A stretch of 64,000 nt of DNA from assembly GCA_029838195.1 (NCBI GenBank), contig JALGVJ010000011.1, positions 32,001 to 96,000 on the forward strand. The letters are read 5' to 3'. The translations under genes were made by a program, and so were the position numbers. Source of the stretch: Promethearchaeota archaeon (lineage in GTDB: Archaea; Asgardarchaeota; Lokiarchaeia; Sigyniarchaeales; SOKP01). Position 1 is the stretch's first letter; every line of letters begins with the position of its first letter. The notes below the pieces were generated by a model. The model saw only the letters and a list, made by a program, of their open reading frames with translations. It made no database searches and was not told where the DNA came from. Below are positions 922 to 32,009 of the stretch, one piece after another.

Positions 922-936
922 TATATAAAGAAAAAA
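922..936 (-). promoter_or_regulatory. T-tract/TATA promoter (T6-C-TTTATATA) for the minus-strand ORF starting at 901
   Basis: Seen directly; TATA ends 20 nt before the ATG (leaderless spacing). Confidence 0.7.
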
Positions 937-976
937 TTCAGTTGAATGAAATTCAAGAAAAAGCGCAATTTTACTA

Positions 977-991
977 TTTTTTATTTAAATA
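977..991 (+). promoter_or_regulatory. T-tract/TATA promoter (T6-A-TTTAAATA)
   Basis: 22 nt before the in-frame ATG at 1014. Confidence 0.7.
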
Positions 992-1001
992 AAACGATTG
1001 G

Positions 1002-1304
1002 ATGATATCATTAATGACCGTTTCAATACATCAAACAAAAACCTCAATTAAAAAGAGAAAAAAGTATTCTTGTCCGTATTGTCACGCCCCAATTGAAATT
1101 AATTTTAATGAAATCGAGCAATCTAAACAGAGAACAGGAGGGCTCTATACCACATGTTATTTACACGGTGATCCCTTACATGCTTTTATTCTTTACATTG
1201 ATTCTGATGGCAAGGTAAGAGGACATGAAATCATCACGAACATTTTCATTACAAAAGAATCAGAAACTCTCAATACGCTATTAAAGAAATGGGCTAAAGG
1301 ATAA
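1002..1304 (+). CDS. Small putative Zn-binding protein (CPYC...H...H); true start probably ATG 1014
   Basis: CPYC plus HGDPLH and LYIDSDGKVRG; promoter spacing favours 1014. Confidence 0.65.
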   Translation: MISLMTVSIHQTKTSIKKRKKYSCPYCHAPIEINFNEIEQSKQRTGGLYTTCYLHGDPLHAFILYIDSDGKVRGHEIITNIFITKESETLNTLLKKWAKG

Positions 1305-1405
1305 TTAATAACATGTTTTTTCATTTATTTTTTTAATTTTTAATTTACAATGAATTTATTGAATCTATTAAAATTTATAAAAGGTTAATTGAAATATCCA
1401 TTATC

Positions 1406-4015
1406 ATGACTTCCAAGCAAGATTCTTCGAAAAATTCTAAAAAACAATTAATAAAACAAGAAGCCGTTAAAAAGTATAACACAGAAACTCTTCCTTTTGA
1501 TGCAGTTTCCGATGAACCAAGGGAAACAAGAAAATCTACTTTAGAAATTGATAAATACATCTCGGATAAACGGATTTTACGTGTATTACTAGAAAACAAT
1601 ATTTTCGAATTAAGAGAAATCCAAAAAGTTGCCATCAAGCAAGGTTTATTTTTCCAAAAATCGTTTTTAATTTGTGCCCCATCCGGAAGTGGTAAAACTC
1701 TAATCGGAGAATTGTGCGCCATCCACAACATTCTCGAGGATTTCGGAAAATCCATCTATCTCGTGCCTTTCAAGGCCTTAGCAACGGAAAAATACATTCA
1801 TTTCAAAAAGAATTATTCCCGATTTAATATTAAGATAGGGCTCAGTATCGGAGACTTTGAACTAAATGAAGAAGAGCTGAAAAAATCGGACCTTATCGTT
1901 ACCACCTACGAGAAAATGGACTCCATTTTAAGAAATTTCAATGAAAAAGATTGGATTCACGAAATTTCCACCATAATAATTGATGAAATTCACATGATAG
2001 GCGAAGAGGTACGAGGGCCCCGACTTGAATCTCTCATCATCCGATTAAACGAATTTCTTTATCATCCTCAAATCATTGGCCTTTCGGCTACTATCGCAAA
2101 TCCCGAATTTTTTAATGCATGGCTAAGTTCTTTAGGAAATAAGACCACTTTAATCAAATCAGATGTTCGACCTGTACCCCTTCATTACCGCATTGAAATC
2201 TCGGGCAATAAAACGGCTACCATTCGCAAGTATATCAAGGCTATCTTGAGTCAAGAAGGGCAAGTATTAATATTCGTGAACACCCGAAAAGATTCGCAAG
2301 TGCTCGCTCAAGAATACATGAAACTAATTCCACACTTTTTAAAACCCGAAGAAAAAGAAATATGTAAAAGATTGAGCAAGAAACTCGAAAAAACGAATGG
2401 AAATAACAAGGAATTGGAACGCATGGTTTCTCACGGCATCGCCTTTCACCACGCGGGACTATTACCAAAAGAACGCAAGCTCGTAGAGGATAATTTTCGA
2501 AAACGCAATATAAAAGTCATTTGCTGCACGACCACGCTTTCTGCAGGTGTGAACACGCCGGCACGATTAGTCATCCTAAAAAAATTCAAGAAACACGTTA
2601 CTTCCGGGTATAATCTTACCAATTTTTCCGGCTATTTCGAAACGGGCGATGGCTTTTCTTTTTTCAAACCTTTTTCTGCTAATGAAGTATTCCAAATGCT
2701 CGGAAGGGCAGGACGACCAGGTTTAGATCCCCTTGGCTATGGTATTATTTTAGTTAAAAATTTAGATGAAAAGCTATGGGTGGAGGATAACTATTTTCAG
2801 CCTTTGGGTTCTGATTATATTCTTAAACCTAAATATAATGATTTAGTTTCCACGCTTAACGACGTGAGCGTGCTAACCGAACAAGTCTTACTACGGATAT
2901 ATGAAGAAAAGCGGATTTCCTTAGAAAAGCTCAAGCAATTTTTTGAACGCACCTATTTTTATCATGAATTCAAAAATAGGGCTTCACGTCAAAATATTTC
3001 CATTCCCATTGAACAGCTCCTCATGATTAAGGAAATCAAGCCTGTAAACATTTTAAAAATGTATTCCGCAAGCAAGAATTTAGTTAATATTAAAAAGAAA
3101 ATAAAAAAAATCCAATTAAATGGTGTAACCAGTAGCAAGATTAGCGGCTATCTTCAAACGCAGTACGGCGTGTTCGAATGCTCGTTTCACGTAAGCCGGG
3201 GAATCACCTGCTCGTGTGGGTTTAAAAATGGATTTTCCGATAATTTTGGAAATACAAAAAACTTATTCGAGTTTTGCGAACACGTGCTTGCATTTTTGAT
3301 ATATCTCATTGAATATCCAGATCCGAAGGTCCAAAAATATGTTGAAGACATCATTCCAAAATCACTTCGAAGGCAATACATTCTAAATTATCTTTTAGAA
3401 AAGGGATTACTCAAGAAAGACGAAAAAAACACGTTTTTTTGTACGGCCTTCGGAAAATTAGTAATTCAACTCTACATTGCTCCTTCCTCTGCAGTGTTGA
3501 TTCGGAAAAAATTGGAAAATAAAAGCATCAACACCTACATGGAACTACTAAAAGAAGCATTTAACATTTTAAAAGAAGAGGGTAAAGTGAGGAGAGATGA
3601 CTTTTTCGAACCCTTATTAGATTGGTGCGATGAAGTTCCTTTAGATGAAATTTTAGATCGATATAACATCATGGCGGGAGATTTGTTCACGCTCAGAGAA
3701 AACGTGGTTAGGAACATTATTTTCATTCAAAAAATTGCCGAATTTTTATCCCGGACTGGCACGGACTTGCGCGAATCTATGTTTAACGTGATGGAAATGG
3801 CAGAAACGCTCAGCATTCGAGTAGAACATGGCATAAAAGAAGAGCTATTCGATTTAGTACTACGCTTAAATCAAGTGGGGCGAGTTCGGGCAAGAATTTT
3901 ATTCAATGCAGGGTATAAAAATGCTTCTGAAGTAAGAAAAGAAACTCCCTACACGCTTCACATAAGAACGGGTCTGGGAATTAATCTATGTAAGGCTATA
4001 TTAAAAAGTAAATAA
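1406..4015 (+). CDS. hel308: Ski2-like DEIH-box helicase (Hel308/Hjm) with an inserted SWIM Zn finger
   Basis: APSGSGKT, DEIH, LSAT, HHAGL, TTTLSAGVN, QMLGRAGRPG; C-terminal HhH (VGRVRARILFNAGY); CSC-x19-CEH insertion. Confidence 0.9.
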   Translation: MTSKQDSSKNSKKQLIKQEAVKKYNTETLPFDAVSDEPRETRKSTLEIDKYISDKRILRVLLENNIFELREIQKVAIKQGLFFQKSFLICAPSGSGKTLIGELCAIHNILEDFGKSIYLVPFKALATEKYIHFKKNYSRFNIKIGLSIGDFELNEEELKKSDLIVTTYEKMDSILRNFNEKDWIHEISTIIIDEIHMIGEEVRGPRLESLIIRLNEFLYHPQIIGLSATIANPEFFNAWLSSLGNKTTLIKSDVRPVPLHYRIEISGNKTATIRKYIKAILSQEGQVLIFVNTRKDSQVLAQEYMKLIPHFLKPEEKEICKRLSKKLEKTNGNNKELERMVSHGIAFHHAGLLPKERKLVEDNFRKRNIKVICCTTTLSAGVNTPARLVILKKFKKHVTSGYNLTNFSGYFETGDGFSFFKPFSANEVFQMLGRAGRPGLDPLGYGIILVKNLDEKLWVEDNYFQPLGSDYILKPKYNDLVSTLNDVSVLTEQVLLRIYEEKRISLEKLKQFFERTYFYHEFKNRASRQNISIPIEQLLMIKEIKPVNILKMYSASKNLVNIKKKIKKIQLNGVTSSKISGYLQTQYGVFECSFHVSRGITCSCGFKNGFSDNFGNTKNLFEFCEHVLAFLIYLIEYPDPKVQKYVEDIIPKSLRRQYILNYLLEKGLLKKDEKNTFFCTAFGKLVIQLYIAPSSAVLIRKKLENKSINTYMELLKEAFNILKEEGKVRRDDFFEPLLDWCDEVPLDEILDRYNIMAGDLFTLRENVVRNIIFIQKIAEFLSRTGTDLRESMFNVMEMAETLSIRVEHGIKEELFDLVLRLNQVGRVRARILFNAGYKNASEVRKETPYTLHIRTGLGINLCKAILKSK

Positions 4016-4051
4016 CAAATCTAATATTATAAATCTATTAATATGATTTAA

Positions 4052-6271
4052 TTAAATCTTCTCCTTTTTCTTTTTCTTTTTATTATATTCATAAAGGTTA
4101 TGAATCATGAACAATAACTCTTGAGAATCATCAAATATGAGATAATGAATCCCATGACTCTTGCAAAAGTGTTTTATTTTTTCTTTTACGACGATTTTTT
4201 CTCCTGATACGTGTTCTGAATAATTAGTGAAATCCATCGCCCAAAAGACTAACACGTACTTTTCTTGTAAGGTTTTATTCTGGAGTAGAAGCTCATGAAA
4301 ATTCATAGTAGATGGTTTCATGATTCGAATCAAAATACGGTCAAGTAAAATGATATCTGAGCTGGAAATAGTATCATTCAATCCATATTGTATTTTTTTT
4401 CGTTGTAAATATTTGCGGAGGCCATATTGAACGGTAAATCGAGAAGAAATCAAAATTCTGGAAAATTCTTTAGAAAAACTTAAAGAAGAATTTTTTATCA
4501 CGTATCTTTCTTGATCTTTTATCTCTTGACAAGAAGAGTTCATGAAAGAAGTTAATCGTGTTTGCGTCTTTTGGATTTTATATTTTTTTTTAGAATTTAA
4601 AACGGAAGTAGTAAAAGAAATATCTTTAGAAGTCGTATCTAAAAGAAAAAGGTGCCCCGAAGGGGAGGTTTTAGGCGCATTTGATTTTAATGTTCCTTCC
4701 ATGTGTTTTAGTTTTTTTAGTGCCACCATTAAATATACCTCATCATTAGTATCTTTCGTATAGAGCATGATAACTTTCCCTTCCCTATGACGAGCAGTGC
4801 GTCCTTTTCTCTGAATTAACCGAATTTCCGATGCCACGATATCATAAAAAATAACTATATCGCATTCGGCAATGTCCAAACCCTCCTCTCCTACGTTCGT
4901 GCTTACCAATACATTATACTTTCCATCCTTGAAATCTTGAAGTATTTTAATCTGTTCTTTTTGGCTCAAACCCTTATCGGCCTTTTTAGACGCTTGCCCC
5001 ACGAACCGCTTGGGCTGAATGCTCGGAAGCGATTTCAATTTTTCCACGATATTTTTCACGGAATCTCTTAACTTCACGAATACGATCACGCGAGATTCTG
5101 GATTAATAGTGAATTGTTTGGCTAATATTTTTTTTAAAAGGATGAGCTTGGGATGTAATAACATCTCTGATTTAAATACTTGATATTTTTTTAATTCCAA
5201 GAGTAAAGCAGTAAGCTTGGGATTGCTCGCAAGATATCTTTGAGCTTTGGAACTATTACTTTTCTTGGCTTCTGATTTTAATTTTTCCAAATAGACCAAG
5301 AGAATGTCTAATCCTTGTTGTTCGACAAGGGATTCCATGTGATACAAAATTAACGCTTGAGCTATGATGGATAAGGCTACATACACGTTCTTGCTGGGAA
5401 TACCTTGCTGGGTCATGGCAACGAGTTCAGAGCGTAATTCCACGAGTTTCTTTCTATATATTTTATCCTCAATATTTTGACTGTTTTTATCACTTTTAGA
5501 GGGAGGAATTACTCCCAAGCGATCCAAATAATATAATCGCTCTTTTATTAATTCGTGTATCACGTCCAGAGCTTTTTTCATGAGATCCGTGAGAGATACT
5601 CCCATCTTAATGACATCCATGGGCTTGATATACGATTTCACGTCAGCATCCGCACGTGAGCGGTAATGGATGTTCTCTAAAGGCACGTGCAAGATTTCGC
5701 ATAAATTTTCCACACTCTCGCGGGTGGCACCAGGGGATGCCGTAAGTGCAAGAATGTTTCCCTCTGGGTTTTGGATCATGTACTCGCTTGCCAAATACAC
5801 GTACGCATAATCTCCCGTGGCGTGATGAGCTTCATCAAAAATCATCAAGCACACCTGAAATAAGCTGTATTTTTGTTTCACAATGTCGTTTCGCAAGGTC
5901 TGTGGCGTGTAAAATAATATTTGATTTTCCGAAAAAAGCAAAGGACGTTCCTTAGGAGATGTCCTTCCCGTCAATATCACGAACTTCTCGGGAGGAATGT
6001 TTAAAAATCGTAAGAAAAATTCGTGGTGTTGGTCTATTAAGGGACGAGTTGGTGCCATTAAAATGATTTTACTGTCGGGAGGATAATATTCTAAAGTTTT
6101 TGCTGCGACCAATAAAGCAATGATGGTTTTTCCCAAGCCCGTGGGAATGATCACCAATGAATTCTTGTTCACGCATTGTTCCGCAATAGAAAGCTGATAT
6201 TCTCGCTTTTCAAGAAGCTCTTCCCTTAAATATTTGAATTCCTTTAACCGCAAATCTTCACTCGTTACCAT
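4052..6271 (-). CDS. hef: Hef/FANCM-family DEAH helicase with a degenerate C-terminal ERCC4-like domain
   Basis: REYQ, PTGLGKT, DEAHH, LTASPG, RFVGQ, GEEGLDI, QRKGRTAR; C-terminal domain lacks the ERK motif; QTRLTSFM PIP-like box. Confidence 0.9.
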   Translation of the reverse strand: MVTSEDLRLKEFKYLREELLEKREYQLSIAEQCVNKNSLVIIPTGLGKTIIALLVAAKTLEYYPPDSKIILMAPTRPLIDQHHEFFLRFLNIPPEKFVILTGRTSPKERPLLFSENQILFYTPQTLRNDIVKQKYSLFQVCLMIFDEAHHATGDYAYVYLASEYMIQNPEGNILALTASPGATRESVENLCEILHVPLENIHYRSRADADVKSYIKPMDVIKMGVSLTDLMKKALDVIHELIKERLYYLDRLGVIPPSKSDKNSQNIEDKIYRKKLVELRSELVAMTQQGIPSKNVYVALSIIAQALILYHMESLVEQQGLDILLVYLEKLKSEAKKSNSSKAQRYLASNPKLTALLLELKKYQVFKSEMLLHPKLILLKKILAKQFTINPESRVIVFVKLRDSVKNIVEKLKSLPSIQPKRFVGQASKKADKGLSQKEQIKILQDFKDGKYNVLVSTNVGEEGLDIAECDIVIFYDIVASEIRLIQRKGRTARHREGKVIMLYTKDTNDEVYLMVALKKLKHMEGTLKSNAPKTSPSGHLFLLDTTSKDISFTTSVLNSKKKYKIQKTQTRLTSFMNSSCQEIKDQERYVIKNSSLSFSKEFSRILISSRFTVQYGLRKYLQRKKIQYGLNDTISSSDIILLDRILIRIMKPSTMNFHELLLQNKTLQEKYVLVFWAMDFTNYSEHVSGEKIVVKEKIKHFCKSHGIHYLIFDDSQELLFMIHNLYEYNKKKKKKEKI

Positions 6272-6295: not shown

Positions 6296-6310
6296 TATAA
6301 AAATAAAAAA
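6296..6310 (-). promoter_or_regulatory. T-tract/TATA promoter variant (T6-A-TTTTTATA) for hef
   Basis: 24 nt before ATG 6271. Confidence 0.6.
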
Positions 6311-6402: not shown

Positions 6403-9400
6403 TTACTCCGCACCCAATCGTTTCTTAATATACCACGAGCTAATGATAGTTAACCCCGGAGTAGACAACAACCCAATCGTTAAAGGCAACACGAAATTGG
6501 TATTTTCTAATACTTGAGGAATTCGTGGTGTTGTGGAATTTGAGGGATGATCAGTGTCATCAGGAGGAGAGGAGTCATCATTATTTCCTCCTTCTTGTCC
6601 ACCTGAAGGATCAGAATCATCTAAAGAACAATTAAACACTTGCTTTATAACGGTAATAGAAGTTTGATAGTAATTGCCCGCCGTATCGTTGGAATGAAAC
6701 GTGATGATAATTGTGGCATTTTCGTATGAATTCCACGCTTCCTTGTTAATGATTCCGCTATATTCATTGGACGTGAGATAATATCGATTCAAGCTTCCAT
6801 TGAACATATACCACGTTTCATGAACATTCCAATCTTCCACCTCAATTTTATATGAAGGCGCTTGCTCGCCGAAAATTAAATTATCTTTCGATGGCTGAAG
6901 GATCGTGATTATAGGTAGGATATTATCCTTTTGCAATCGTATGGTAGCATTAGAGCACGTGCCTGCCTTGTTTTTCACGATAAATGTTAAATCAATGCTT
7001 TCATTTCCAAACCGATTCCAGTGAGCTTGAGAAATTTGTCCTTGAACGTAATCATTCACGGAGTAATAGGGACTTTGAAGAGTAAGATGCGAGTTATTTA
7101 TCACGTACCAAAACGATTCCAAGATTTTGCCATTTAATTCAATTTCATAGCGTGGAGCTTGAATGCCGTGTAGCGACCCCTCGATAGGGGAATGAATAAT
7201 AATTGATGGATGAGAAAGCTCTTTATATAGAGTAATCACATCCGTACCATTATTTTTTTGAATGTCAGTGGCTTTAATTGTCAACGTGAGCGTACCATTT
7301 CCGAAAAAGTTCCAATCATCTTCAAAAATAGAATCATTGAATGTCCAAATCCCTTCTATCCGTTTCATTTCATTCAAGGATATCCATCGCTCTCTCTCAT
7401 GAGTGCCATTAGATAGCATTAAATACACCGCATCTAAATAGGTTTCGTTCACGTGGAAAACAAGAGAAGGTGTTTGCCAAGCATGATACGATTGATTCAG
7501 GGGGTTCTCAATCGACACCAACGGAATTTGCGTGTCATTGATAATCAACCCCAAAGAAACACTCATATCTGCCACCCAAGAGAGTGAAGCTTGAGGCACG
7601 TAAAATTTATCCCTTGTTCTATAAAATGAATGAAGCGAAGTAGAGTAGGTATTTAAAATTAAATTCCGGACCAGTGTGCTATTAAAAAACATGCCCAAAT
7701 CAAGCAATTCATTGATCTTATAAACGAGATATAACTCTTCCAGATTTGAATAAATTAGACAAGATTCTGCGTAATTCTTGATTTTTTGAGGATCAATCAA
7801 GCTTTCATTTACTAATTTCAATATGGCAAGTGATTGATAAGTCGTTTCCAGAATTTCTAAAGAATCCTCAGCTTCGGTACGATAAGTAGGCTGAAAGTAA
7901 AGTTCATCGGTAGTTTCCACCGCGTGAGAAAGAACGTAGTTTGTTAGGGCAGTCGTGTTTATATTCGTGTCAGAAATGTTTCCCAAGTTTAAATAACGAG
8001 CCAGCAAGTCCAAAGTCAATACAGAATAATAGGAATGTTCCAAGTATACATAGCTGTTTCTCAACTCGTTGGAAAGGTAAACATGAAATCCATCGGGAGA
8101 AAAGCCGCCCGTATTAGAATAGCCGGGTTCCATGAACTGACACGATTCAATATAACCCAAGATATCATTTATGGAGATCCCCGTTTCCAGTTCAAACTCA
8201 TCAAACAAGTCCAATTTGTAGAGCGTGTCAAGAGCATGATACATGGAGCGGGCGTTCACGGGAGCATTTAACTCGTGGACTCTCTCATGCGTGCCTCTCG
8301 TGTCGAATTCAAAAGGATGAGAATGATAGTATAGCTCGCCGCCGTCTATGTTCGTGAACAAGCTAAATTGATACACGTCAAACTGAGAATAATCCTTGAA
8401 GGATTGCTTGAATTGAGATAAGAGATAAGGAGCATCTAATTGGGTTAATAAGTTGTAATCATAATAATAAAATGCATTTATCAAGGAATTTAATTTCTCC
8501 AGGGTTGTATAATCGGGAGACATTAAGGAATATCCTCCATGAAACTTGAAAGATTCGAGTCCTTGAGCAATTTCATCTTTAACATCTTCAGTAAGAGAAT
8601 TCATAAAACCCGTCTCATTAATGGAACGAATAATCTGGTAAGTGTAAATGATTTCGTGATAAGGTATTTCCGTGGATTTATCCCAAATTCCCATGCTGTT
8701 TCGATGCGAGAGGAGGTAATTCGTGATTTCCGTGCTATTAATGTTCGGATTGTTGGCAAGACTGCCGAGATCCAATCCAAGAGCAGTTGCCACGAGATTG
8801 CAGTAATCCATATTAAAGTATTGTGAATGTGGGGCAATGACAAAGTAATCTTCTTGAGCATTGTATAAATAATCTAAATAAGAATTGAAATTAACCATGT
8901 TTATTTGATCCAAGCTATTTAGCAATTCTAACGATTTCACGCAATAATAAGAGGCTAATAAATTGGTTTCTTTAATAACAAGAGAATTGAACGAGGAATC
9001 CAAATCGTTGTAAAAGCCTCCTAAATGAATGCCCGCAACTGTTTCTTGTAAGCTTGCTAACCAAGAAATCAGTTCATTCTTCTCTTGAGCATGCGTGCTC
9101 CAATCCTCTCCTAATAAAAGCAGTGTTTTAATAGCAAAATAAGTGTTATCAGCGGTAGGCAAGGCTAGCTCTCCCGTGAGCGTGTCATCATAAGGTTGCC
9201 CGAGAAAACCGTGCTTTAATGGATGATAACAGCTCCAAATAAAATCAATAATGTTTTGTACATTAATCTGGTCCAATTCATTGAAAATACCAAGAGATAA
9301 AGTGGCATGGCAATTTATTTCCAAGTAAGAAGTCAATGGTGGGGGATCATCTTTAGCTAAATCAGTATCCAAATATCTATCGGAATAAGAATCCGAGAAA

Positions 9401-11241
9401 AGACCCGAACTAACATTATAGTGGACCATGATGTATTCCATAATTTCTTGCGTATTTATTTCATCAAGCTTTCCGATGCTCTGAAGGATGTATAAAGCAT
9501 AATACGTGGCATGAAGTGAGGGAGGATGAATAGTAGGATAATATCCTTGCCCTTGTTCTTGCTCTTGCTGATCGTAGTAATTTATATTATATTTTAAGGA
9601 ATCTTGAATGATTTGCTCGATTGCTAAATAATACTGCTCTGAAGTCACTACATCAGGAGAATATTTTAAAATAAAAGCATCATTTTCATGAATTCCAAGG
9701 AAATCAAATTTTCCTAAAATGAAAAGGTTTCCCGAAAAATCTTTAATAATCGCATTTCCCGAAATAACATTTGAAGCTCCCCAGGTGGTATTCCATCTCA
9801 TTATTTCTAAAGAATTATCCACCTCTCCAATAAGTACGCTTTTTTCTGAGATAGAATAACGAACATATCCCGTGAGAATGAGATGTTCCTCAGCAGATTG
9901 AAATATATTCCTCAAATAGGCCCCTTGCTCACTTGACCACGTGAATTCTTTATTCAATTCTCCCGTTTCATTAAAGCTGACCATAAATATACTATCTCTT
10001 CCATTCACTTGAAAACTCTCTGTATCTCCTCCGATAATAATATCATCATCCTTATCAATCGTTAAGGAATATAAAATATCATCTGCCATCCCTCCCCAAG
10101 TTCGATTCCATTGCTCTTGCCCTTGGTTATTATATTTAATTAACAAGGCATCATAATTTCCCGCTCCCAAACTCTTGGTAGTAGCTCCCACGTACACGTT
10201 TCCCTTCGAATCTACCTCAAGAGCCGAGCTAAATATGAGATCTTGGTCATTTCCGTGCCATGCTCTCTCCCAAATGATTTCTCCTGTAATATCATATTTA
10301 TTAATGATGATATCATTTAGCGTGCTTGACCATCCCCCCATATAAATCGTATTGGAATCTTCCAGTGCAATGGCATTTCCAAGAGTACCTTCTTCGGCTA
10401 AAATGGTCCACGCAATTGTTCCGTTCGGATAAATTTTACTTAGCCCCGCATGATGAAGATTGCTTCCAGCAGAAAAATTCCACGTTCCCACGATATATAC
10501 ATTTCCTTGAGAATCACATGCAACATCACTTCCAAAATCAAAATTATCCGTTCCTAATGTAATGTTCCACTGTTCCATACCCGTTGAATCAAATTTTACC
10601 AAATAAATATCATCATTTCCGTGAGGGCCGTTTTTCATCGTCCCGATTTGATACATGTTTCCCGAAAGATCGAGGGCAATTCCGTTTCCTTCCGTGCTTT
10701 TCTCATTTCCCCAGAAAATTTCTTGCTCCAAGTGATAAGATGTTTTTAAAATATCAATTTCAAACGAGTAGATTTCTGATGACGTGATATTTACTCCATC
10801 TGACACGTTTACGTACCATTGGTATTTTTTACCGTGATGCAATCCCATCCACGTTAAACTCACTCGCTGATTGCTGGGAGTGTTTTCCACCCTTCCTATT
10901 TCAGAATTATCGGAAGCATCATGAAATATAACCGTATAGCTCTCATCATCAGGGTCTGCCACGTAAATGCTCAAGGTCGGGTTCAGTCCGGCAATGACTT
11001 CACCGTCCGCAGGAGATGGACTTAAAATTTCTAGCTCCGTGATATGAGCTGATTTAGGAACCTCTTGAGAGAACATGGGTTTAGAAGATGATTGATTATT
11101 GGATTGGGTTATTCCGTCATCGTTTATCCGAGTATTATTGAAAACGCTTATTTGCATATTTGAACTCAAACTAATTACTAATAGTAGCACGATCAAGGAG
11201 CTAATCATTACATGACTGATTCTTTTCATGACGATCACCAT
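6403..11241 (-). CDS. Large membrane-anchored surface protein: signal peptide, Ig-like domain, SBBP-type beta-propeller, prenyltransferase/squalene-cyclase-like alpha-alpha repeats, Ig-like repeats, D/S/P linker, C-terminal TM
   Basis: N-terminal hydrophobic segment; repeats such as GIALDLSGNMY, DVACDSQGNVY, EVDSKGNVY with QWNRTWGG; GGF...YY-helix repeats; C-terminal TM followed by KKR. Confidence 0.75.
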   Translation of the reverse strand: MVIVMKRISHVMISSLIVLLLVISLSSNMQISVFNNTRINDDGITQSNNQSSSKPMFSQEVPKSAHITELEILSPSPADGEVIAGLNPTLSIYVADPDDESYTVIFHDASDNSEIGRVENTPSNQRVSLTWMGLHHGKKYQWYVNVSDGVNITSSEIYSFEIDILKTSYHLEQEIFWGNEKSTEGNGIALDLSGNMYQIGTMKNGPHGNDDIYLVKFDSTGMEQWNITLGTDNFDFGSDVACDSQGNVYIVGTWNFSAGSNLHHAGLSKIYPNGTIAWTILAEEGTLGNAIALEDSNTIYMGGWSSTLNDIIINKYDITGEIIWERAWHGNDQDLIFSSALEVDSKGNVYVGATTKSLGAGNYDALLIKYNNQGQEQWNRTWGGMADDILYSLTIDKDDDIIIGGDTESFQVNGRDSIFMVSFNETGELNKEFTWSSEQGAYLRNIFQSAEEHLILTGYVRYSISEKSVLIGEVDNSLEIMRWNTTWGASNVISGNAIIKDFSGNLFILGKFDFLGIHENDAFILKYSPDVVTSEQYYLAIEQIIQDSLKYNINYYDQQEQEQGQGYYPTIHPPSLHATYYALYILQSIGKLDEINTQEIMEYIMVHYNVSSGLFSDSYSDRYLDTDLAKDDPPPLTSYLEINCHATLSLGIFNELDQINVQNIIDFIWSCYHPLKHGFLGQPYDDTLTGELALPTADNTYFAIKTLLLLGEDWSTHAQEKNELISWLASLQETVAGIHLGGFYNDLDSSFNSLVIKETNLLASYYCVKSLELLNSLDQINMVNFNSYLDYLYNAQEDYFVIAPHSQYFNMDYCNLVATALGLDLGSLANNPNINSTEITNYLLSHRNSMGIWDKSTEIPYHEIIYTYQIIRSINETGFMNSLTEDVKDEIAQGLESFKFHGGYSLMSPDYTTLEKLNSLINAFYYYDYNLLTQLDAPYLLSQFKQSFKDYSQFDVYQFSLFTNIDGGELYYHSHPFEFDTRGTHERVHELNAPVNARSMYHALDTLYKLDLFDEFELETGISINDILGYIESCQFMEPGYSNTGGFSPDGFHVYLSNELRNSYVYLEHSYYSVLTLDLLARYLNLGNISDTNINTTALTNYVLSHAVETTDELYFQPTYRTEAEDSLEILETTYQSLAILKLVNESLIDPQKIKNYAESCLIYSNLEELYLVYKINELLDLGMFFNSTLVRNLILNTYSTSLHSFYRTRDKFYVPQASLSWVADMSVSLGLIINDTQIPLVSIENPLNQSYHAWQTPSLVFHVNETYLDAVYLMLSNGTHERERWISLNEMKRIEGIWTFNDSIFEDDWNFFGNGTLTLTIKATDIQKNNGTDVITLYKELSHPSIIIHSPIEGSLHGIQAPRYEIELNGKILESFWYVINNSHLTLQSPYYSVNDYVQGQISQAHWNRFGNESIDLTFIVKNKAGTCSNATIRLQKDNILPIITILQPSKDNLIFGEQAPSYKIEVEDWNVHETWYMFNGSLNRYYLTSNEYSGIINKEAWNSYENATIIITFHSNDTAGNYYQTSITVIKQVFNCSLDDSDPSGGQEGGNNDDSSPPDDTDHPSNSTTPRIPQVLENTNFVLPLTIGLLSTPGLTIISSWYIKKRLGAE

Positions 11242-16916: not shown

Positions 16917-16918
16917 GT

Positions 16919-22447: not shown

Positions 22448-22763
22448 TATTATTTTCTCTTAAAGCTTGTAAAACCCTTTTCTCAAGATTATCATGAGAT
22501 CTGTTAGGCAAGATAATAGTATTATCACGCTTGGAAGAATTGTTTTCCGCATTTTTAAGGTTCATGGCTAATAACATTAAGGGTAACCATTTATCCGTTC
22601 CATCAGAAGAATTTCCTTTTATTTTCAAGTGTTTTTTGTATTTCACGAACAGGAAATAGACGATAATGACGCACGTGATATAAATGACATATTGGGGATT
22701 GGTTTGAATGAACACGATTAAGAACATTATCAAGATTAGATAGAATAAACATTTAAATGTCAT
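22404..22763 (-). CDS. Small two-TM membrane protein overlapping the radB-like gene (start revised from 22805 to 22763)
   Basis: SD AGGAGGTA (22775-22782) precedes ATG 22763; the promoter at 22808 makes the 22805 start unlikely. Confidence 0.6.
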   Translation of the reverse strand: MTFKCLFYLILIMFLIVFIQTNPQYVIYITCVIIVYFLFVKYKKHLKIKGNSSDGTDKWLPLMLLAMNLKNAENNSSKRDNTIILPNRSHDNLEKRVLQALRENNNGSKKRKKKFKDFE

Positions 22764-22807
22764 TTTTTTGATACTACCTCCTGTATAGTATTTAAATACA
22801 TTCATTC

Positions 22808-22823
22808 TATATAAAGAAAAAAA
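22808..22823 (-). promoter_or_regulatory. T-tract/TATA promoter (T7-C-TTTATATA) for the membrane protein-radB operon
   Basis: Seen directly, followed by SD and ATG. Confidence 0.7.
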
Positions 22824-23385: not shown

Positions 23386-23401
23386 CCGTAAAGTTTAAAA
23401 G
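23386..23401 (+). promoter_or_regulatory. Canonical archaeal BRE-TATA (CCGTAAAG-TTTAAAAG) for the tfb paralog
   Basis: Purine-rich BRE before TATA, about 60 nt upstream of ATG 23460. Confidence 0.6.
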
Positions 23402-23459
23402 GCACACTCCCCCCAGTATATTTCCTTAAGAAAAAATGTAAAATGAGTTGTAATAAAAA

Positions 23460-24864: not shown

Positions 24865-25029
24865 CTTTTATTTCTCTCCTTCCCTCTATTCTTTCACTTT
24901 TTCTTTTTATTTTTATCTTTAATTTTTCTATTTTTTATTTTCTATTCTAAATTTTTATAACATGAAAAAAATAAATTTATAAACATGAATAATTATATTA
25001 AAATAAATATAAAATAAACTAAAAAACAA

Positions 25030-25178
25030 GATTCTCCTCCTAAACGAGAAACTTGGATTTTTGTCTTTTGGTTAGCATGCTAAGGCATGCTCTTTTGCGA
25101 CTTTCTTTTCTATTATATATTTTGATGGGCACTCTTGTTTGGCCCCTTAACCCGTTTAGGGGAGAATCATTCTTTTTT
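25030..25178 (+). ncRNA. Candidate structured ncRNA (~150 nt) closed by a 16-bp stem
   Basis: 25030-25046 pairs with 25153-25168 (one bulge); internal hairpin 25074-25091; TATA TTTATAAA at 24976-24983 upstream; T-run downstream. Confidence 0.45.
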
Positions 25179-25281
25179 AGGAGCGTATAATTTTTAATAA
25201 TTATTTTAAATGATTATTAGGTAACCATCAACTTTCAAATGATTTTTTTAAAAGAAATATCGGGAACTATTTTTTTAACTA

Positions 25282-25296
25282 TTTTTTATTTAAATA
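25282..25296 (+). promoter_or_regulatory. T-tract/TATA promoter (T6-A-TTTAAATA) facing an unannotated small ORF
   Basis: Followed by SD GGAGGTGA at 25350-25357. Confidence 0.6.
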
Positions 25297-25369
25297 TGAT
25301 TGATGATCTTATTTTATTGCTAATCAAAAAGTATTCCTAAAAACAGAAGGGAGGTGATGGACTCGAAAC

Positions 25370-25525
25370 GTGCTGGGAATATTTTTTGGGCTTCTTTTTT
25401 TTTTATTATTGTTATATCTTGTTGCCACTTTATTTTTGAGAAGTCAAGGATGGGTATTGCTTTTCAAAAAATTCATTAAACAATTTAACATTTTTATAAG
25501 AATTAGTAATAGAGTCCCATTCTAA
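25370..25525 (+). CDS. Candidate 51-aa single-TM peptide (MLGIFFGLLFFLLLLYLVATLFLR...), overlapping the 3' end of the convergent 1214-aa gene
   Basis: Promoter, perfect SD, GTG start, hydrophobic N-terminus. Confidence 0.35.
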   Translation: MLGIFFGLLFFLLLLYLVATLFLRSQGWVLLFKKFIKQFNIFIRISNRVPF

Positions 25526-28500
25526 TGTAGTTAGAGGGTTATATTGTTTTAATTCTTTTTCTGAAAAAGGAAGGATTTCAGGAACATCAATAAGATCCGT
25601 GAGAAACATAAATTTTTTTATTCCCATGGAGATGAGTACTTGTTCGAAGGAGGAAATAAGATCTTTGAGGTCCGTGCCCATTGGAATCCAAAAAGAGATA
25701 AAAAACCCTTGGAAAAGCGTGAATTTTTGATCACCATAAACGTAAGACTTTCCTGAAATCTCTTTAATAAATCCAAAATTAAAATATTGAAAAATGGAGA
25801 TTAATAAATTCTTTTTATCCTTAGGAATGTTTAAAATAAGAAGGTGAATTTCTTCCGATAAATTTAAATTTTTCAAGTTCATGTAGGGATGAATCAATTT
25901 TTTTTTTAATAGAAGGGATAATGCGTCATGTTGTTCTTTCGAGCATTTATCTGGAGTAAAAATAAAAGAAGATAAGTCTTTAGGTGTTAATCCATGAACT
26001 TTTAATAGAGCAGAAAATTCTTCTGAATTTGGAGGATAAACATCATTAGAAGGGTATAATGAAAAAGCATGATGCTCGCGGTGTTCACGGTGCTTCTCTG
26101 TTAATATGAGGTTAGCGTGGGCTCGAAAATTTTCCGTATTAATCCTCCATTCTCCTGCGCTGAAATTATGATCGAAATTGAATATTTCGTGAATGACTTC
26201 AGTTTTGAAAAGAATGCATTCTTTTATGGCTTTTTTTGAAAATAACAACCACTTTAAATAGCTCAGATTGGGCAAGTCTTGGGGAAATAAATAGGAGATA
26301 AAAAACATTGCATCAGGACAATATTCCGCCGCTGAAATTTGAACGGTTTGAAAAGTATTGGATAATAATAATTTAAAATCAAGTGTTTCAGGAGAAGTGT
26401 CTATAACCCTAATATATAAATAATATTGTTCCAAGCTAAACGCTTTATAATTTGTGAAAAAAAGAAGGGATTGCAAGTGCGATTGTAATGTTTTTATTAA
26501 ATTTTCATAATGAAATGGTTTTTTTAAAATATCCTTTAGATTTTCTCTAATTATTCTTAATTCTCGAATTATATCCATTGATATTAAATGATACTTGTTT
26601 TCATTTTCTTTTTGAAGCTTTAAAACACACGCTTGTAATTTTTCATTATTTAATGCCATCAGATTGTCGTAAACGGAAGGGAAATGGGCTTGAAAATGGT
26701 TAATCTTGGGTAAAGAAGAGAGATTTGTAATATTGTTCGCTTTCAATAAATATTTGACGTATTTATTGAGTTCCTTGAATAAAGAAGCATCGTAAATGAA
26801 TTCTTTTTTACCAAAATCGTAGAAATTATGGCTTGTTTGAAAAGAAAAAAATCCATCTGAAATTCCACGATAATAAAATTTAATATCTTTTCCAAAATAA
26901 TTCAAAAAAAACAAAAACCATTCTTTTTTATTTGAAAGAACGGAAAGATAACCTCCAATTTGTTTTTCCTTATTATTTTTAAATATAGAAACAAGTAAAC
27001 GAGGGATTAATTTATTAAATTGAGTTAATTTCTGATTAAAAGAATTAAAATTATCAGGAGAGAGAATTGCATCAAATATATATTGACAAAAATGGCTTAC
27101 TGATAAGGTGTTAATAAAAAAAGGCGCTATTACTTTATTTTTAAGATATTTTTCATAGAGATGGGTGAGATATTTAATAGTAATTTTACCACTTAAATTT
27201 TCTTCTTGAATTTTTTTTAAATATATATTTTTCTGAATTAAAAATTTTTGAAATATAGGGGGTTTTCGGATATATTGAATCACGGTATTAACATCAAAGA
27301 CATTTAATGCTTCTAAGGATGTAATAAAATTGAATAATAAATCAATCTGTGATTTATCTTGAATATCCGATAAAAAAGGTAAGTTTTTTGAAATTAAAAA
27401 ATCCGTATTTTTTAAGCATGCTAATTCCATGATGATGTTTTTTTGTTTTTTTCCCTTTTTTTGAATCAAAGTTTCAAAAGAAGGGGATTCAGAAAAATCT
27501 TTTAATAAACATATTATTTCTTTTAAATGAAAAAAACCACCTTTAACTGATTTTAAAATGGAAAAAAAAAAGGAGCGAACATATTTATTATTTACAATGC
27601 CATCATGTCCCAATTTCAAATTCATAAGATTGCTCTTTAAACTACTTAAAGCTTCATTTAAATACTTTTGTAGCGTAATAATAGCATCTTTTATATAAGA
27701 TTGAAAAGAAAACCCCGAAGGCCCCCAATTATTTAATCGATTTAAAAAAGTATATTCTATTAAATTTAATGAGAGATCTGATTGGTTATTACGTTTAAAT
27801 TTTCTCTTCAAAATGAATCGATTTTCTATTAATTTCTCTTGAATTAATTTATTTAAGAATTCATGATAGTTCATTTTAAAATAGTTTAAATTCAAGCAGT
27901 TTTCTGTTTCAATGCTCTCTTTCAAAGAATAGGAGCAAATATTTAATTTATTTAATTGAATTAAAAATTGTTTTAAATCTCCTACAAATGTGGAGGGAAT
28001 TACGAAAAATCCCCAATATCGATTTTCTAAAGAATTTAACACTTGATAATTATATCCATAAAAGGGCATATGTTGTATAATTTTTTTAGGAATTGAATTT
28101 AGCAAGGAAGGATGGAATTGAAAAAAACAATAAAAGACCTTTATTCCAATTCTCGACCAATCGATAAAATAAGAAGGAGAAAGAGGAGAATATTGAATTA
28201 ATCTTAAGTTTTTACTAAATTTGCGTAAAGAAAGAGAAGTGTTAATTTTTCCTACGGATTTATATTCTTTAAATAAAGATTTATATTCTTCATTTGAGGT
28301 AAAAATTTTTTTATTGTAAAAAATTTGGGATAAAGCCCAAATAGTTTCGATTAACTCTTGATTCCCGTGCATGTTCTTAAAGAAATCCCGAATTTGATCC
28401 TTGAATATTAAATCATAAAATTGATCGTTAATGGCAGAAATTTTATCTCCATGAAGTTGAAAATACTGAAGTATAGCACGTTCATTAGAACTCACATCAT

Positions 28501-29074
28501 TGGATAATGGAACGTCTTGGAACCATTTGTGTAAAAATAAAGCGGAATATTCTCCTGAAAATAAAGACAATGCTTCTTGGTTCATGTATGCTGCATCCAA
28601 TTCGTTGAAAAAAGACTTGGGAAGAAATCTTAATTTTTTTAATTGAGCTATAGAAAGATGATATAGAGTTAAGGAAATTACCATTAAATGGGATAATTCT
28701 GGAGGTATGAAACAATAATAAATTTCTCGTATTAAGATAAAAGGTAAAAATGGAATCATGGTTTCTGGAATACGGATTTCATGAAGTTCCATTCCCTTTA
28801 AATCGTTTATAACTTTTCTGATAATTCCAAAATCCATTAAATTTAAATTTAAATTTAAACCATTTTCTTTCACATCTGGTGCATTAGAATTAGAAATAAA
28901 TACAAATTTAACATGATGGAAGGTTTTTAAAGGATCCAATTCTTTCTTTTTAATTTCTAAGATTTTATTAAAACTTTTTTCGAGAAAACAGCTATCTATT
29001 TCAGCAGCCTGCTCTTTTATTTTCTCCAAAATAAATTTTAGATCGTTTTCTAAATCTTTTACTTCATTAAGCAT
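25430..29074 (-). CDS. Large hypothetical protein with repeated wHTH/Lrp-AsnC-like segments
   Basis: 1214-aa ORF; repeated patterns IDWSRIGIKVFY, TNYKAFSLEQYY, MNLKNLNLSEEI like Lrp-family linkers; canonical promoter. Confidence 0.6.
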   Translation of the reverse strand: MLNEVKDLENDLKFILEKIKEQAAEIDSCFLEKSFNKILEIKKKELDPLKTFHHVKFVFISNSNAPDVKENGLNLNLNLMDFGIIRKVINDLKGMELHEIRIPETMIPFLPFILIREIYYCFIPPELSHLMVISLTLYHLSIAQLKKLRFLPKSFFNELDAAYMNQEALSLFSGEYSALFLHKWFQDVPLSNDVSSNERAILQYFQLHGDKISAINDQFYDLIFKDQIRDFFKNMHGNQELIETIWALSQIFYNKKIFTSNEEYKSLFKEYKSVGKINTSLSLRKFSKNLRLIQYSPLSPSYFIDWSRIGIKVFYCFFQFHPSLLNSIPKKIIQHMPFYGYNYQVLNSLENRYWGFFVIPSTFVGDLKQFLIQLNKLNICSYSLKESIETENCLNLNYFKMNYHEFLNKLIQEKLIENRFILKRKFKRNNQSDLSLNLIEYTFLNRLNNWGPSGFSFQSYIKDAIITLQKYLNEALSSLKSNLMNLKLGHDGIVNNKYVRSFFFSILKSVKGGFFHLKEIICLLKDFSESPSFETLIQKKGKKQKNIIMELACLKNTDFLISKNLPFLSDIQDKSQIDLLFNFITSLEALNVFDVNTVIQYIRKPPIFQKFLIQKNIYLKKIQEENLSGKITIKYLTHLYEKYLKNKVIAPFFINTLSVSHFCQYIFDAILSPDNFNSFNQKLTQFNKLIPRLLVSIFKNNKEKQIGGYLSVLSNKKEWFLFFLNYFGKDIKFYYRGISDGFFSFQTSHNFYDFGKKEFIYDASLFKELNKYVKYLLKANNITNLSSLPKINHFQAHFPSVYDNLMALNNEKLQACVLKLQKENENKYHLISMDIIRELRIIRENLKDILKKPFHYENLIKTLQSHLQSLLFFTNYKAFSLEQYYLYIRVIDTSPETLDFKLLLSNTFQTVQISAAEYCPDAMFFISYLFPQDLPNLSYLKWLLFSKKAIKECILFKTEVIHEIFNFDHNFSAGEWRINTENFRAHANLILTEKHREHREHHAFSLYPSNDVYPPNSEEFSALLKVHGLTPKDLSSFIFTPDKCSKEQHDALSLLLKKKLIHPYMNLKNLNLSEEIHLLILNIPKDKKNLLISIFQYFNFGFIKEISGKSYVYGDQKFTLFQGFFISFWIPMGTDLKDLISSFEQVLISMGIKKFMFLTDLIDVPEILPFSEKELKQYNPLTTLEWDSITNSYKNVKLFNEFFEKQYPSLTSQK

Positions 29075-29480: not shown

Positions 29481-29498
29481 TTTTTTTTCATTTAAATA
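29481..29498 (+). promoter_or_regulatory. T-tract/TATA promoter (T8-CA-TTTAAATA)
   Basis: Upstream of ATG 29565. Confidence 0.6.
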
Positions 29499-29564: not shown

Positions 29565-29786
29565 ATGATATTAGATTATTATTCTCGTGTTTTAGATGGT
29601 GTAGAATTTCTCATTGCCGTTGGCTCTCTCGTGGGCCTTTTTGGTGTTATCATTGGATTTATTTTATTCATTTTTGGTTCTACTAGATACCGTTTACGTA
29701 TTTTATTTTTTATTATTATTAGTTGTCTATTATTAATCGCATGTGGATGGGCCACTGGTTTACGTTATTTTCATATTCGAATATAA
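29565..29786 (+). CDS. 73-aa two-TM-helix membrane protein (paralog of 13431)
   Basis: EFLIAVGSLVGLFG...ACGWATGLRYF. Confidence 0.8.
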   Translation: MILDYYSRVLDGVEFLIAVGSLVGLFGVIIGFILFIFGSTRYRLRILFFIIISCLLLIACGWATGLRYFHIRI

Positions 29787-29861
29787 ATCAATTTTTTATT
29801 TATATAGATTTATCGTCTTAGTATTATAGATCTAAATTCATTAATAATTCTTCCTGAGTCC

Positions 29862-30934: not shown

Positions 30935-30949
30935 TATTTAAAGGAAAAA
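30935..30949 (-). promoter_or_regulatory. T-tract/TATA promoter (T5-CC-TTTAAATA)
   Basis: Faces the 56-aa Cys-rich ORF. Confidence 0.6.
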
Positions 30950-31179
30950 TTTTTTTAAAAACGTGCTCCGTGAAAGGATTTCTCAATACAATGAATTAAT
31001 CTTGCTTTTTTTCTTACTTTTTATTATTTTAGTTTAATAAAAAGCATAAATTAATAACAGGAAGGAAAAAAAAGGAGGGAGGAGATTGAAAAAGATGGAC
31101 TAAAAAAAATAATATTATTAAGATATGAAAATATTAATTTTAATTTTAAATTTTTAAAAATTTTGCGATGGAGAATTTC

Positions 31180-31193
31180 TTTTTATTTAAATA
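31180..31193 (+). promoter_or_regulatory. T-tract/TATA promoter (T5-A-TTTAAATA)
   Basis: Upstream of ATG 31258. Confidence 0.6.
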
Positions 31194-31257
31194 AACAAGA
31201 TGATAAATATATATAATCTAATTAAAAAATAATTAAATTTAAGAACTACAGGAAAAA

Positions 31258-31461
31258 ATGGAAGAAAACATGATTATTGATGATTGGATGGATTTTTCCA
31301 ATATTAAAAAAATGGACCGGAATACCTATGAAATCTCGGGAATAGTGTGGGAGAAAACGTGGACTGAGGACGAGGAATTTATTGATCAATTTGTTGAAAT
31401 TTTAGATCAATATAAAGGGAAAAAAATTAAGGTTAATATAAAGATAGAACTCCAATCCTAA
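31258..31461 (+). CDS. Small acidic hypothetical protein
   Basis: 67-aa ORF with promoter and AGGA upstream. Confidence 0.6.
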   Translation: MEENMIIDDWMDFSNIKKMDRNTYEISGIVWEKTWTEDEEFIDQFVEILDQYKGKKIKVNIKIELQS

Positions 31462-31556
31462 AATTGTTATTTCAAAGAGTTTTCTAAATTTTTACTATTA
31501 TTTGTTTTTTATATTTTTAATTCTTTCCACATTTTAAAGCTATTTTTAATTTTAAT

Positions 31557-31859
31557 TTAATCTAATTCTAGTTCACGAAAAATTTGTTTTTGATCAAAAG
31601 AGGGAGAAATTTTATAATATTTTTTAGAATAGGAAAATATACCTTCTCGAAAGAGAAATCCATGAGCTTCGAGAATATCTAATGTCTTCCAAAGGAAATA
31701 AAGATAGGAGCGCTCATTGGAAGGAATGTTAAAATAATACCACAATTTTTTCGTGTTAATGAAATTTTCGCCTTGTTCATGTAATAGGTTAATAGTTGAG
31801 ATAATTTTTTTCATTCGTGTCTTTTTAATGTTTTTAATTTTTTTTAATTGAGGTTCCAC
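31557..31859 (-). CDS. Probable winged-helix DNA-binding protein
   Basis: FINTKKL...FLWKTLDILEAHGFL...KYYKI; SD GAGGAG upstream. Confidence 0.55.
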   Translation of the reverse strand: MEPQLKKIKNIKKTRMKKIISTINLLHEQGENFINTKKLWYYFNIPSNERSYLYFLWKTLDILEAHGFLFREGIFSYSKKYYKISPSFDQKQIFRELELD

Positions 31860-31994
31860 TAAGCTTCTCCTCTTTTGGTGGAATTCTTGAGAAGATGAGA
31901 TACAAATTATCTATTATTTTAAAAAAGTTTGAAATGCGAGAAGAAATAATAAGAAATCTTTTTTTTAATCAATTTTGAATTTTTTCTTTCCTCA

Positions 31995-32009
31995 TTTTTT
32001 ATTTAAATA
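31995..32009 (+). promoter_or_regulatory. T-tract/TATA promoter (T6-A-TTTAAATA); 8-bp hairpin at the predicted 5' end (32037-32060)
   Basis: tctcgtga/tcacgaga inverted repeat just after the expected TSS. Confidence 0.6.

Follow-up and report, generated by a model that had tools for sequence, protein, structure and literature searches.

A candidate sigma-like promoter switch in an Asgard archaeon: T-tract promoters, a divergent TFB paralog and a co-inherited gene set

The DNA considered here, below called the window, is a stretch of 64,000 nucleotides (C89:32001-96000) from the metagenome-assembled genome (MAG) of a Promethearchaeota archaeon, an assembly of 4.5 Mb in 94 contigs with 33.5% GC, 96.6% completeness and 7.9% contamination (G000; other G numbers denote genomes of relatives). 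Between positions 922 and 32,009 the window carries a series of promoters in which a run of thymines directly precedes the TATA box, and among the genes behind them lies one for a divergent paralog of transcription factor B (TFB). An earlier note, made from the letters of the window alone, had proposed that these genes form a regulon read by an alternative basal factor. That proposal is supported here, as we infer from a TFB paralog situated inside the block, from glutamines replacing arginines in its DNA-contacting helix, and from its co-inheritance with the motif and the genes. The motif and its specificity, its conservation before orthologs, the fold of the TFB, its altered helix and the co-inheritance were computed in this work; co-expression of the set and a common biological role are what they would lead us to expect.

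T-tract promoters and the genes behind them

The transcription units of the island that lie in the window are collected in Table 1. For quantification of the motif we defined a perfect copy as the 15-mer TTTTTT[C/A]TTTA[A/T]ATA and a relaxed pattern as T5-6, one or two nucleotides and TTTAWATA. Chance levels were taken from dinucleotide-preserving shuffles, and a reversed control was used for the loci and genomes of relatives, where 134 genomes of the same taxonomic family, recorded as Promethearchaeota (Asgard) MAGs, were compared. A position profile over all upstream regions returned the Shine-Dalgarno signal alone and no general promoter consensus, because most genes have leaders, and k-mer counts brought out A-richness alone.

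Table 1 Genes and open reading frames (ORFs) of the island within the window and the promoters in front of them (window positions; aa, amino acids; HTH, helix-turn-helix; HhH, helix-hairpin-helix).
Gene or ORF	Coordinates	Strand	Promoter	Remarks
ORF	2-901	(-)	T-tract, 922-936	Continues upstream of window; leaderless, TATA end 20 nt before ATG
100-aa ORF; Hel308-like helicase	1002-1304; 1406-4015	(+)	T-tract, 977-991	Divergent partner of 922
Hef-type helicase without nuclease domain	4052-6271	(-)	Near match, 6296-6310	T6-A-TTTTTATA
1612-aa surface-type protein	6403-11325 with promoter	(-)	T-tract, 11311-11325	Prenyltransferase-like toroid and beta-propeller repeats
Divergent RadA paralog	11658-12914	(+)	T-tract, 11588-11602	Extra C-terminal HhH
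105-aa Zn-ribbon protein; 70-aa membrane protein	13079-13396; 13431-13643	(+)	T-tract, 13013-13027	
RPA-like OB-fold protein	13798-14745	(+)	Near match, 13708-13722	Single-stranded DNA (ssDNA) binding; T6-G-TTTAAAAG
227-aa protein	14789-15508 with promoter	(-)	T-tract, 15494-15508	Function unassigned; TATA end 21 nt before ATG
181-aa protein; small Arf/Ras-type GTPase	15638-16183; 16203-16823	(+)	T-tract, 15572-15586	
~200-aa protein	16919-17572	(+)	T-tract, 16902-16916	Paralog of ORF 20989-21624
678-aa protein	17651-19757 with promoter	(-)	Near match, 19743-19757	Function unassigned
Divergent FEN1 paralog	19796-20896	(-)	T-tract, 20918-20932	Leaderless (21 nt)
211-aa protein	20989-21624	(+)	T-tract, 20953-20966	Divergent partner of FEN-like gene
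Operon: 133-aa ORF; RadB-like NTPase	22404-22805; 21692-22447	(-)	T-tract, 22808-22822	
Divergent TFB paralog P0001, 463 aa	23460-24851	(+)	Canonical, 23388-23410 (+)	Zn ribbon, two cyclin repeats, HTH, C-terminal extension of ~140 aa
40-aa hydrophobic ORF	25357-25479	(+)	T-tract, 25282-25296	Unannotated; Shine-Dalgarno before ORF
73-aa membrane protein	29565-29786	(+)	T-tract, 29484-29498	
99-aa ORF	to 30161	(+)	T-tract, 29792-29806	
56-aa Cys-rich ORF	30850 down to 30680	(-)	T-tract, 30935-30949	Unannotated; Shine-Dalgarno sequence
67-aa ORF	to 31461	(+)	T-tract, 31180-31193	
411-aa GNAT-like protein	32130-33365	(+)	T-tract, 31995-32009	Last member, right edge of island

All sixteen copies listed in the earlier note are present, with T-runs that start within a few bases of where it had placed them, and so are its three near matches (6296(-), 13708(+) and 19743(-)), each consisting of T6-N followed by a variant TATA box. 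One more strict copy, before the 99-aa ORF (29792-29806(+)), had been overlooked. Between 33 and 64 kb of the window there is no strict copy, as the note had claimed; the purine-rich bases that it saw upstream of TATA boxes there held only weakly (2/23 by the criterion used). The 12-15 matches seen compare with 0.4-0.6 in the shuffles, none of which reached the observed count. When aligned, the copies form a tight 15-mer identical to the perfect motif and mostly preceded by A. The 7 bp upstream of TATA are thus T6 followed by C or A and take the place of the A-rich or purine-rich B recognition element (BRE), which is normally A-rich in archaea (PMC7289017). The TATA box itself is of the consensus type, TTTAWATA.

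The relaxed pattern occurs 111 times in the genome. Since 25 of these copies span C89:5720-64009, the block extends about 26 kb to the left of the window, and it may continue past the contig end. The regulon size of about 32 kb given in the earlier note is therefore too small; it comes to at least 58 kb here, plus the contigs C49 and C50 (see below). Perfect 15-mers are nearly all intergenic and oriented toward an ORF throughout the genome, and 15 of the 34 (44%) lie inside C89:5.7-64 kb, which is 1.3% of the genome.

It is clear from the following comparison that the T-tract is not a general property of the TATA boxes in this genome. Among intergenic TTTAWATA boxes a T-tract is present at 25/42 in the island against 44/1296 elsewhere (odds ratio 42, Fisher p 8e-24), so the motif is not equally common before housekeeping genes, and at TTTAWATA boxes within coding regions of the island it is found at 0/40. 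All 25 island copies are intergenic and face an ORF. As the note had described, divergent genes each carry their own copy: 14 of the 25 make up seven back-to-back pairs. More than half of the island copies are thus placed in divergent intergenic regions where they cannot terminate upstream genes, which disposes of the idea that they are T-run terminators at gene 3' ends. Outside the main island, about half of the 86 relaxed matches have no downstream ORF, so some isolated copies are due to chance. Isolated perfect copies elsewhere, before leucine-rich repeat, sulfatase, histidine kinase and MFS genes, had no evident subject in common, and we took them to be unrelated or due to chance.

The centre of an archaeal TATA box lies about 26 nt before the transcription start. 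The distance from the end of TATA to ATG is bimodal, with one peak at 20-29 nt (leaderless) and another at 45-59 nt (short leader), and the distribution has no peaks when measured the other way. The leaderless spacing that had been noted by eye was recovered: in the automatic tally, which took as start codon the earliest ATG followed by an ORF of 40 codons or more, six copies have the ATG 20-29 nt past TATA, and about ten have an in-frame ATG at 20-25 nt by eye. Either the leaderless ATG or an initiator-like pyrimidine-A lies 21-23 nt past the end of the box. The 286 copies from other genomes share several features that played no part in the motif search: T at -14, a C as spacer, a purine at +6 in 92% and, at +21/+22, pyrimidine-A with A in 75%. 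Pyrimidine-A is the usual archaeal initiator signature (PMC7289017). Collectively, the data support the motif as a distinct archaeal promoter class, as far as sequence can tell.

A few assignments in Table 1 need comment. The NCBIfam RadA model aligns to the RadA paralog from residue 2 and includes the N-terminal HhH, so that translation probably starts at TTG, 11658; the second HhH covers residues 359-415. The gene pair that the earlier note had named mglBA stands in part: the small GTPase has a family match, whereas the 181-aa protein, read as MglB, has no match in Pfam, NCBIfam or PHROGs. The 40-aa and 56-aa ORFs were below the 60-aa limit of the ORF listing.

Some genes inside the block are probably not members of the regulon, because they have an A-rich BRE (the 1214-aa gene at 25430-29074) or no motif copy nearby (the DUF169 genes and a saccharopine dehydrogenase gene). 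The DUF169 genes are three tandem paralogs with 29-43% mutual identity (L002:7499-10665 (-)). Also within the block, L001:14156-18703 (+) encodes a 1515-aa protein with DUF4011, superfamily-1 helicase and MTES_1575 restriction-endonuclease-like parts; it has no T-tract promoter and resembles a defence gene. A fold of about 160 nt with a long terminal stem (25020-25180 (-), minimum free energy -50.4 kcal/mol, z -6.7 versus shuffles) separates the gene of the TFB paralog from the T-tract promoter at 25282. It could represent either a structured RNA or a small element with inverted repeats; Rfam gave zero family matches for it or anywhere else within the window.

A divergent TFB paralog inside the block

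P0001 is, on the evidence of profiles and a structural model, a full TFB with Zn ribbon, linker, two cyclin folds and HTH. This identity rests on three comparisons. A family profile built from 40 members matches cyclin repeat 1 of TFIIB/TFB among PDB sequences (E 4e-6). The AlphaFold2 model, with a per-residue confidence (pLDDT) of about 90 over residues 100-320, was superimposed by Foldseek on the Pyrococcus woesei TFB core in the TBP/TFB/DNA complexes 1ais and 1d3u (1ais_B/1d3u_B; TM 0.81, root-mean-square deviation 3.2-3.6 Å over 203-210 columns). Finally, hhalign aligned residues 16-289 with the eight canonical TFBs of the genome at 97.5% probability (E 8e-12). The Zn ribbon cysteines C17, C20, C34 and C37 are invariant in the 40 homologs; Pfam Zn_Ribbon_TF matched weakly (E 0.0011, below cut-off), and some homologs carry PF08271. 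The region that would correspond to B-reader and B-linker aligns to the canonical proteins and is conserved in the family (Y48, P51, Y52, G68, E72, R73), although its sequence differs and its pLDDT is 40-55.

The part of TFB that inserts into the major groove at the BRE, and that sets which way transcription runs, is the HTH of its second cyclin repeat (PMC4581349, PMC7289017). Both HTH helices are present in the paralog (H269-276 and H280-292), and the last one, MST(I/V)QxQVK (here MSTVQSQVKK, residues 280-289), is the most conserved block of the family. At the aligned positions all eight canonical TFBs have TE(V/A)TxRxR, so that both arginines are glutamines in the paralog. The genome has a single TBP gene (contig C53) beside its eight canonical TFB genes, which fits the unchanged TATA box of the T-tract promoters.

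The promoter of the TFB paralog itself has a canonical A/G-rich BRE and no T-tract, showing that the putative switch gene would be read by the ordinary machinery. Its architecture is shared by at least 35 genomes: a purine-rich BRE (e.g. GAGGAAAAGG), then TTTAAAAG, a CA(A/C)ACTCC box and TATATTCTTTAG about 65 nt before the ATG. A regulator of the switch gene may use the CA(A/C)ACTCC box as its operator, and a separate promoter with a box of its own is as expected for a hierarchical switch.

Short copies of the paralog, of about 235 aa, matching residues 97-317 and having no Zn ribbon, were seen in two relatives (G020:C5:200099-200821 and G018:C35:110265-110987). Both sit directly behind perfect T-tract promoters, and they may be feedback competitors.

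Co-inheritance and the nature of the gene set

The TFB paralog is present in 97 of the 134 same-family genomes, usually in one copy and in up to six, and elsewhere in the order weak matches or none were obtained. Five contiguous genomes have 108 perfect motifs, of which 35 are found no more than 30 kb from a paralog gene, in 3.1% of the sequence. The 80 TFB-paralog loci examined in other genomes (1.25 Mb in total) contain 138 perfect copies, or 11 per 100 kb compared with 0.75 per 100 kb genome-wide here; the motif is thus enriched about 15-fold, and the reversed-sequence control gave 0.

As to whether the motif is conserved at orthologous loci, it stands upstream of orthologs in dozens of genomes, and its distances to the genes are conserved as well. 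It precedes all orthologs of the Zn-ribbon gene (26/26), of the 181-aa gene before the GTPase (9/9) and of the protein 16919-17572 (6/6), and most of those of the RadA-like (28/37) and FEN-like (9/16) genes; for the TFB paralog itself the count is 1/80. In the closed genome G059 the island orthologs are split over three distant sites and motif clusters are found at exactly those three, so the motif follows the genes and not a place.

Where the paralog is missing, the motif excess can be missing too. Across 31 paralog-bearing genomes with a completeness of 98% or more, perfect motifs are about 2.6-fold over the reversed control, against about 1 in the other families of the order. In G036, G038 and G044 (97-99% complete) the TFB paralog, the FEN-like and the RadA-like gene are jointly absent, with 25 motif copies and 27 in the control. 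Close relatives differ in this way, even inside one genus: G040 has the set, while its congener G044 and also G038 are without it. G044 keeps the flanks of the G040 island in collinear order, and the extra segments of G040, of about 6.7, 39 and 8.2 kb, are interleaved with conserved backbone; in G040 contig C9, 515-615 kb, all eight motif copies fall in the segments absent from G044 and none in the backbone between them. Judged by these genome comparisons the set is optional, its genes, motif and factor having been gained or lost together, and with three separate segments this was not one simple insertion.

The genes concerned are, from sequence comparison, extra and divergent copies as far as recombination and repair are involved. 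The genome has two better-scoring RadA genes (C7 and C1) and a canonical FEN1 on C46, and by BLASTP the helicases, the RPA and the XPF of the island have other relatives. The XPF nuclease is a separate gene of the island upstream of which the scans run showed no T-tract copy. The island versions score below NCBIfam equivalog cut-offs, with the exception of one RadA model (NF003301, 334 bits against a cut-off of 259). The set also holds many small membrane and Zn-ribbon proteins, very large surface-type proteins and genes without assigned function.

Two smaller clusters with T-tract promoters lie on C49 (6-30 kb, motifs at 6-29 kb) and C50 (36-56 kb, motifs at 40-55 kb). They contain paralogs of island genes at 30-90% identity, and each has its own copy of the TFB paralog (80% and 44% identity, respectively), the C50 copy lacking the C-terminal extension. 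As the assembly has 7.9% contamination, the cluster on C49 could come from a relative binned with it and not be a true duplicate.

Just left of the window a T-tract promoter at C89:5720 precedes the gene for a 1303-aa multi-pass membrane protein (C89:1706-5617 (-), identical to L001:1706-5617), which has conserved counterparts on contig C49 and in the genomes G040, G059 and G147. Language-model features indicated resemblance to HerA/CedB/TrwB ATPases, and a model of residues 540-1010 (predicted TM-score 0.72) matched HerA and the conjugative coupling protein TrwB (E 6e-10, TM 0.42-0.53), a HerA/TrwB/FtsK-type ATPase fold. The protein has no GxxxxGK[ST] Walker A motif and no Pfam or NCBIfam match, and its profile gave nothing significant against PDB sequences. 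The predicted fold is a lead and not a family assignment. Together with the paralogs of an ssDNA-binding protein, a recombinase, a flap nuclease and helicases, and with the membrane and surface proteins, the HerA/TrwB-like fold makes it plausible, if speculative, that the set is a DNA-transfer-plus-recombination programme. The more explicit version, in which a sigma-like TFB switch would drive optional DNA exchange and recombination by a HerA/TrwB-like membrane translocase, surface and pilin-like proteins and a dedicated second set of RadA, RPA, FEN1, Hel308 and Hef, is a tentative one that we regard as doubtful. If it were true, the set would amount to an inducible programme for mating or repair that has a recombinase to itself, which recalls the eukaryotic split between Rad51 and Dmc1.

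Possible readers of the T-tract and comparison with known systems

The mechanism that we favour is the following. The single TBP of the genome would bind the consensus TATA box TTTAWATA, and the TFB paralog, made from its own canonical promoter, would pair with TBP on the T-tract promoters, where TTTTTT[C/A] forms the 7 bp directly upstream of TATA at the usual position of the A-rich BRE. The paralog would then recruit RNA polymerase to these promoters in the manner of an alternative sigma factor. Transcription would start about 22 nt past TATA, so that an mRNA would either lack a leader or have one of 25-35 nt that carries a Shine-Dalgarno sequence, and the class would drive about 25 transcription units in the island and others on C49 and C50. 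We consider it rather likely that the T-tract promoter class and the divergent TFB constitute such a sigma-like switch for the optional, co-inherited gene set. For the narrower claim that the paralog itself contacts the T-tract, which was read from the helix and the position of the element, the balance of probability is also favourable, if slightly less so.

Several observations weigh against this interpretation. An excess of motifs is found in genomes in which no paralog was detected (G144, 13 versus 1 in the control; G074, 15 versus 4), and G029 and G105, where likewise no paralog was found, have RadA-like orthologs, some at contig ends; in all of these the paralog may have been lost to assembly. 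Genomes of genus g12 with the paralog often have few perfect copies. The gene calls come from a crude ORF caller, and in all cross-genome counts given above the related genomes are non-independent samples. Finally, co-inheritance and adjacency are equally expected if another protein of the set reads the T-tract, since they are unable to separate the members of the set from one another.

That last point leads to the strongest rival explanation, namely that the regulon is real and conserved, and that the TFB paralog is not what reads its T-tract and would have another role. The reader could be a protein of the set acting as activator or repressor (e.g. 16919-17572 or 20989-21624), a protein on C50 that adjoins the motif cluster and has a weak TFIIB-repeat match (E 0.002), or a canonical TFB aided by the rigid shape of T-tract DNA. 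The motif excess in genomes without a detected paralog is in line with this, as are the G020 and G018 short copies, which stand directly behind T-tract promoters and have no Zn ribbon. However, the T-tract lies exactly where the HTH of a TFB makes its contact, as 7 bp abutting TATA, and the recognition helix is the part of the paralog most changed relative to canonical TFBs and most conserved within the family. The paralog moreover appears to keep what polymerase recruitment needs, the Zn ribbon, both cyclin folds and counterparts of B-reader and B-linker, and all eight canonical TFBs keep the arginine-bearing helix suited to the usual BRE. We therefore regard another reader as unlikely.

An integrated virus or mobile element was our first guess for the island, and we have downgraded it. 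According to this explanation the island is a conjugative or virus-like element that brought its own factor and promoters, and the regulon is the gene set of the element. The distribution is patchy even inside one genus, with presence in one genome and absence in another between conserved flanks; genomes carry one to six paralog copies, and three related clusters occur in the same MAG. All members are extra paralogs or function-unassigned genes, and a membrane protein with a TrwB/HerA-like fold, small membrane proteins and giant surface proteins would suit such an element. Against it, no integrase match was found among the scanned island ORFs (some small ORFs were outside the scan), there is no tRNA gene within 96 kb, and PHROG matches were 0/10 for the function-unassigned ORFs. 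The dispersal of the genes over three distant sites in G059, with motifs at each, and the mosaic of three segments interleaved with backbone when G040 is compared with G044 do not look like one insert, and presence in 72% of the genomes of the family at 35-60% identity suggests long vertical residence. A mobile origin, which we hold to be quite improbable, would in any case be compatible with a sigma-like mechanism. Chance in AT-rich DNA, or T-run terminators abutting TATA boxes, might be suspected in a genome of 33% GC where about half of the outlying relaxed matches lack an ORF, but for the clustered copies it is refuted, and its probability is negligible, since no shuffle matched the observed count, the reversed control gave 0 versus 138 at foreign loci, intergenic TATA boxes differ so sharply between island and genome, 14/25 copies lie in divergent regions, start-codon spacing is conserved, an initiator-like signal stands at positions outside the search, and the motif is kept before orthologs.

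Returning to the proposed switch, its interest lies in the combination of a sharply different BRE (T6 versus A-rich), a TFB with changed DNA-contacting residues and a gene set that co-varies with them over about 100 genomes. To our knowledge, archaea are usually said to have no clear sigma-like promoter switching, and diversification of the TFIIB family (Brf, Rrn7/TAF1B) is a central theme in eukaryotes. A helix in which Arg has become Gln, matched by a BRE that has gone from A-rich to T-rich, would offer a testable recognition code for TFB/TFIIB, together with a set of target promoters to start from, and this in the archaea that are nearest to eukaryotes. It would also suggest that Asgard archaea have a second recombination machinery under a control of its own and possibly a system for DNA transfer. 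Neither a T-rich BRE nor this TFB family was described in the literature that we searched.

The best-known parallel, as an analogy, is the TFB3-dependent response of Sulfolobus to UV and DNA damage, the Sulfolobales regulon of Ups pili and the Ced importer, in which as here a TFB paralog is associated with genes for DNA exchange and repair (PMC6101591). That regulon includes membrane proteins and a membrane-bound ATPase of the HerA/VirB4/CedB type (PMC6101591), and the island offers recombination and repair paralogs together with the membrane protein of predicted HerA/TrwB-like fold. The likeness has limits: TFB3 is a shortened protein that has neither HTH nor B-finger and acts together with the main TFB, while the paralog described here is full-length with core and HTH. 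Furthermore, in our case the special element occupies the BRE position itself, the lineage is Asgard, and the proteins are not orthologous.

A full-length paralog with a specific promoter set and the switching of a programme are found in TFB2 of Sulfolobus acidocaldarius, which governs the cell-cycle D-phase regulon (bioRxiv 10.64898/2026.09.06.749720). There the TATA boxes of TFB1 and TFB2 promoters are near-identical, the BREs 'appeared similar' and the spacing differs (bioRxiv 10.64898/2026.09.06.749720), unlike the present case, where T6[C/A] stands in place of the BRE and the recognition helix has a changed sequence. Haloarchaea likewise have several TFBs per cell, and their TFB and TBP paralogs show some promoter specificity and distinct regulons (PMC7289017); what sets our system apart from theirs is one paralog family, a sharply different 15-bp consensus, a co-inherited gene set and one TBP.

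Bacterial alternative sigma factors, including those of phages and sporulation, resemble the proposal in being swappable factors whose C-terminal HTH reads an upstream anchor, the -35 element or here the BRE, and in that the gene of the factor is itself read by the housekeeping factor. The HTH2 of TFB and region 4 of sigma are considered homologous (PMC4581349). Unlike sigma, the machinery here is TBP plus TFB, and of an anti-factor or a cascade we see no sign except for a conserved box in the promoter of the TFB paralog. In the alternative TFB regulons known so far the BRE is similar, specificity is partial, or the DNA-reading domain is absent (PMC7289017, PMC6101591, bioRxiv 10.64898/2026.09.06.749720).

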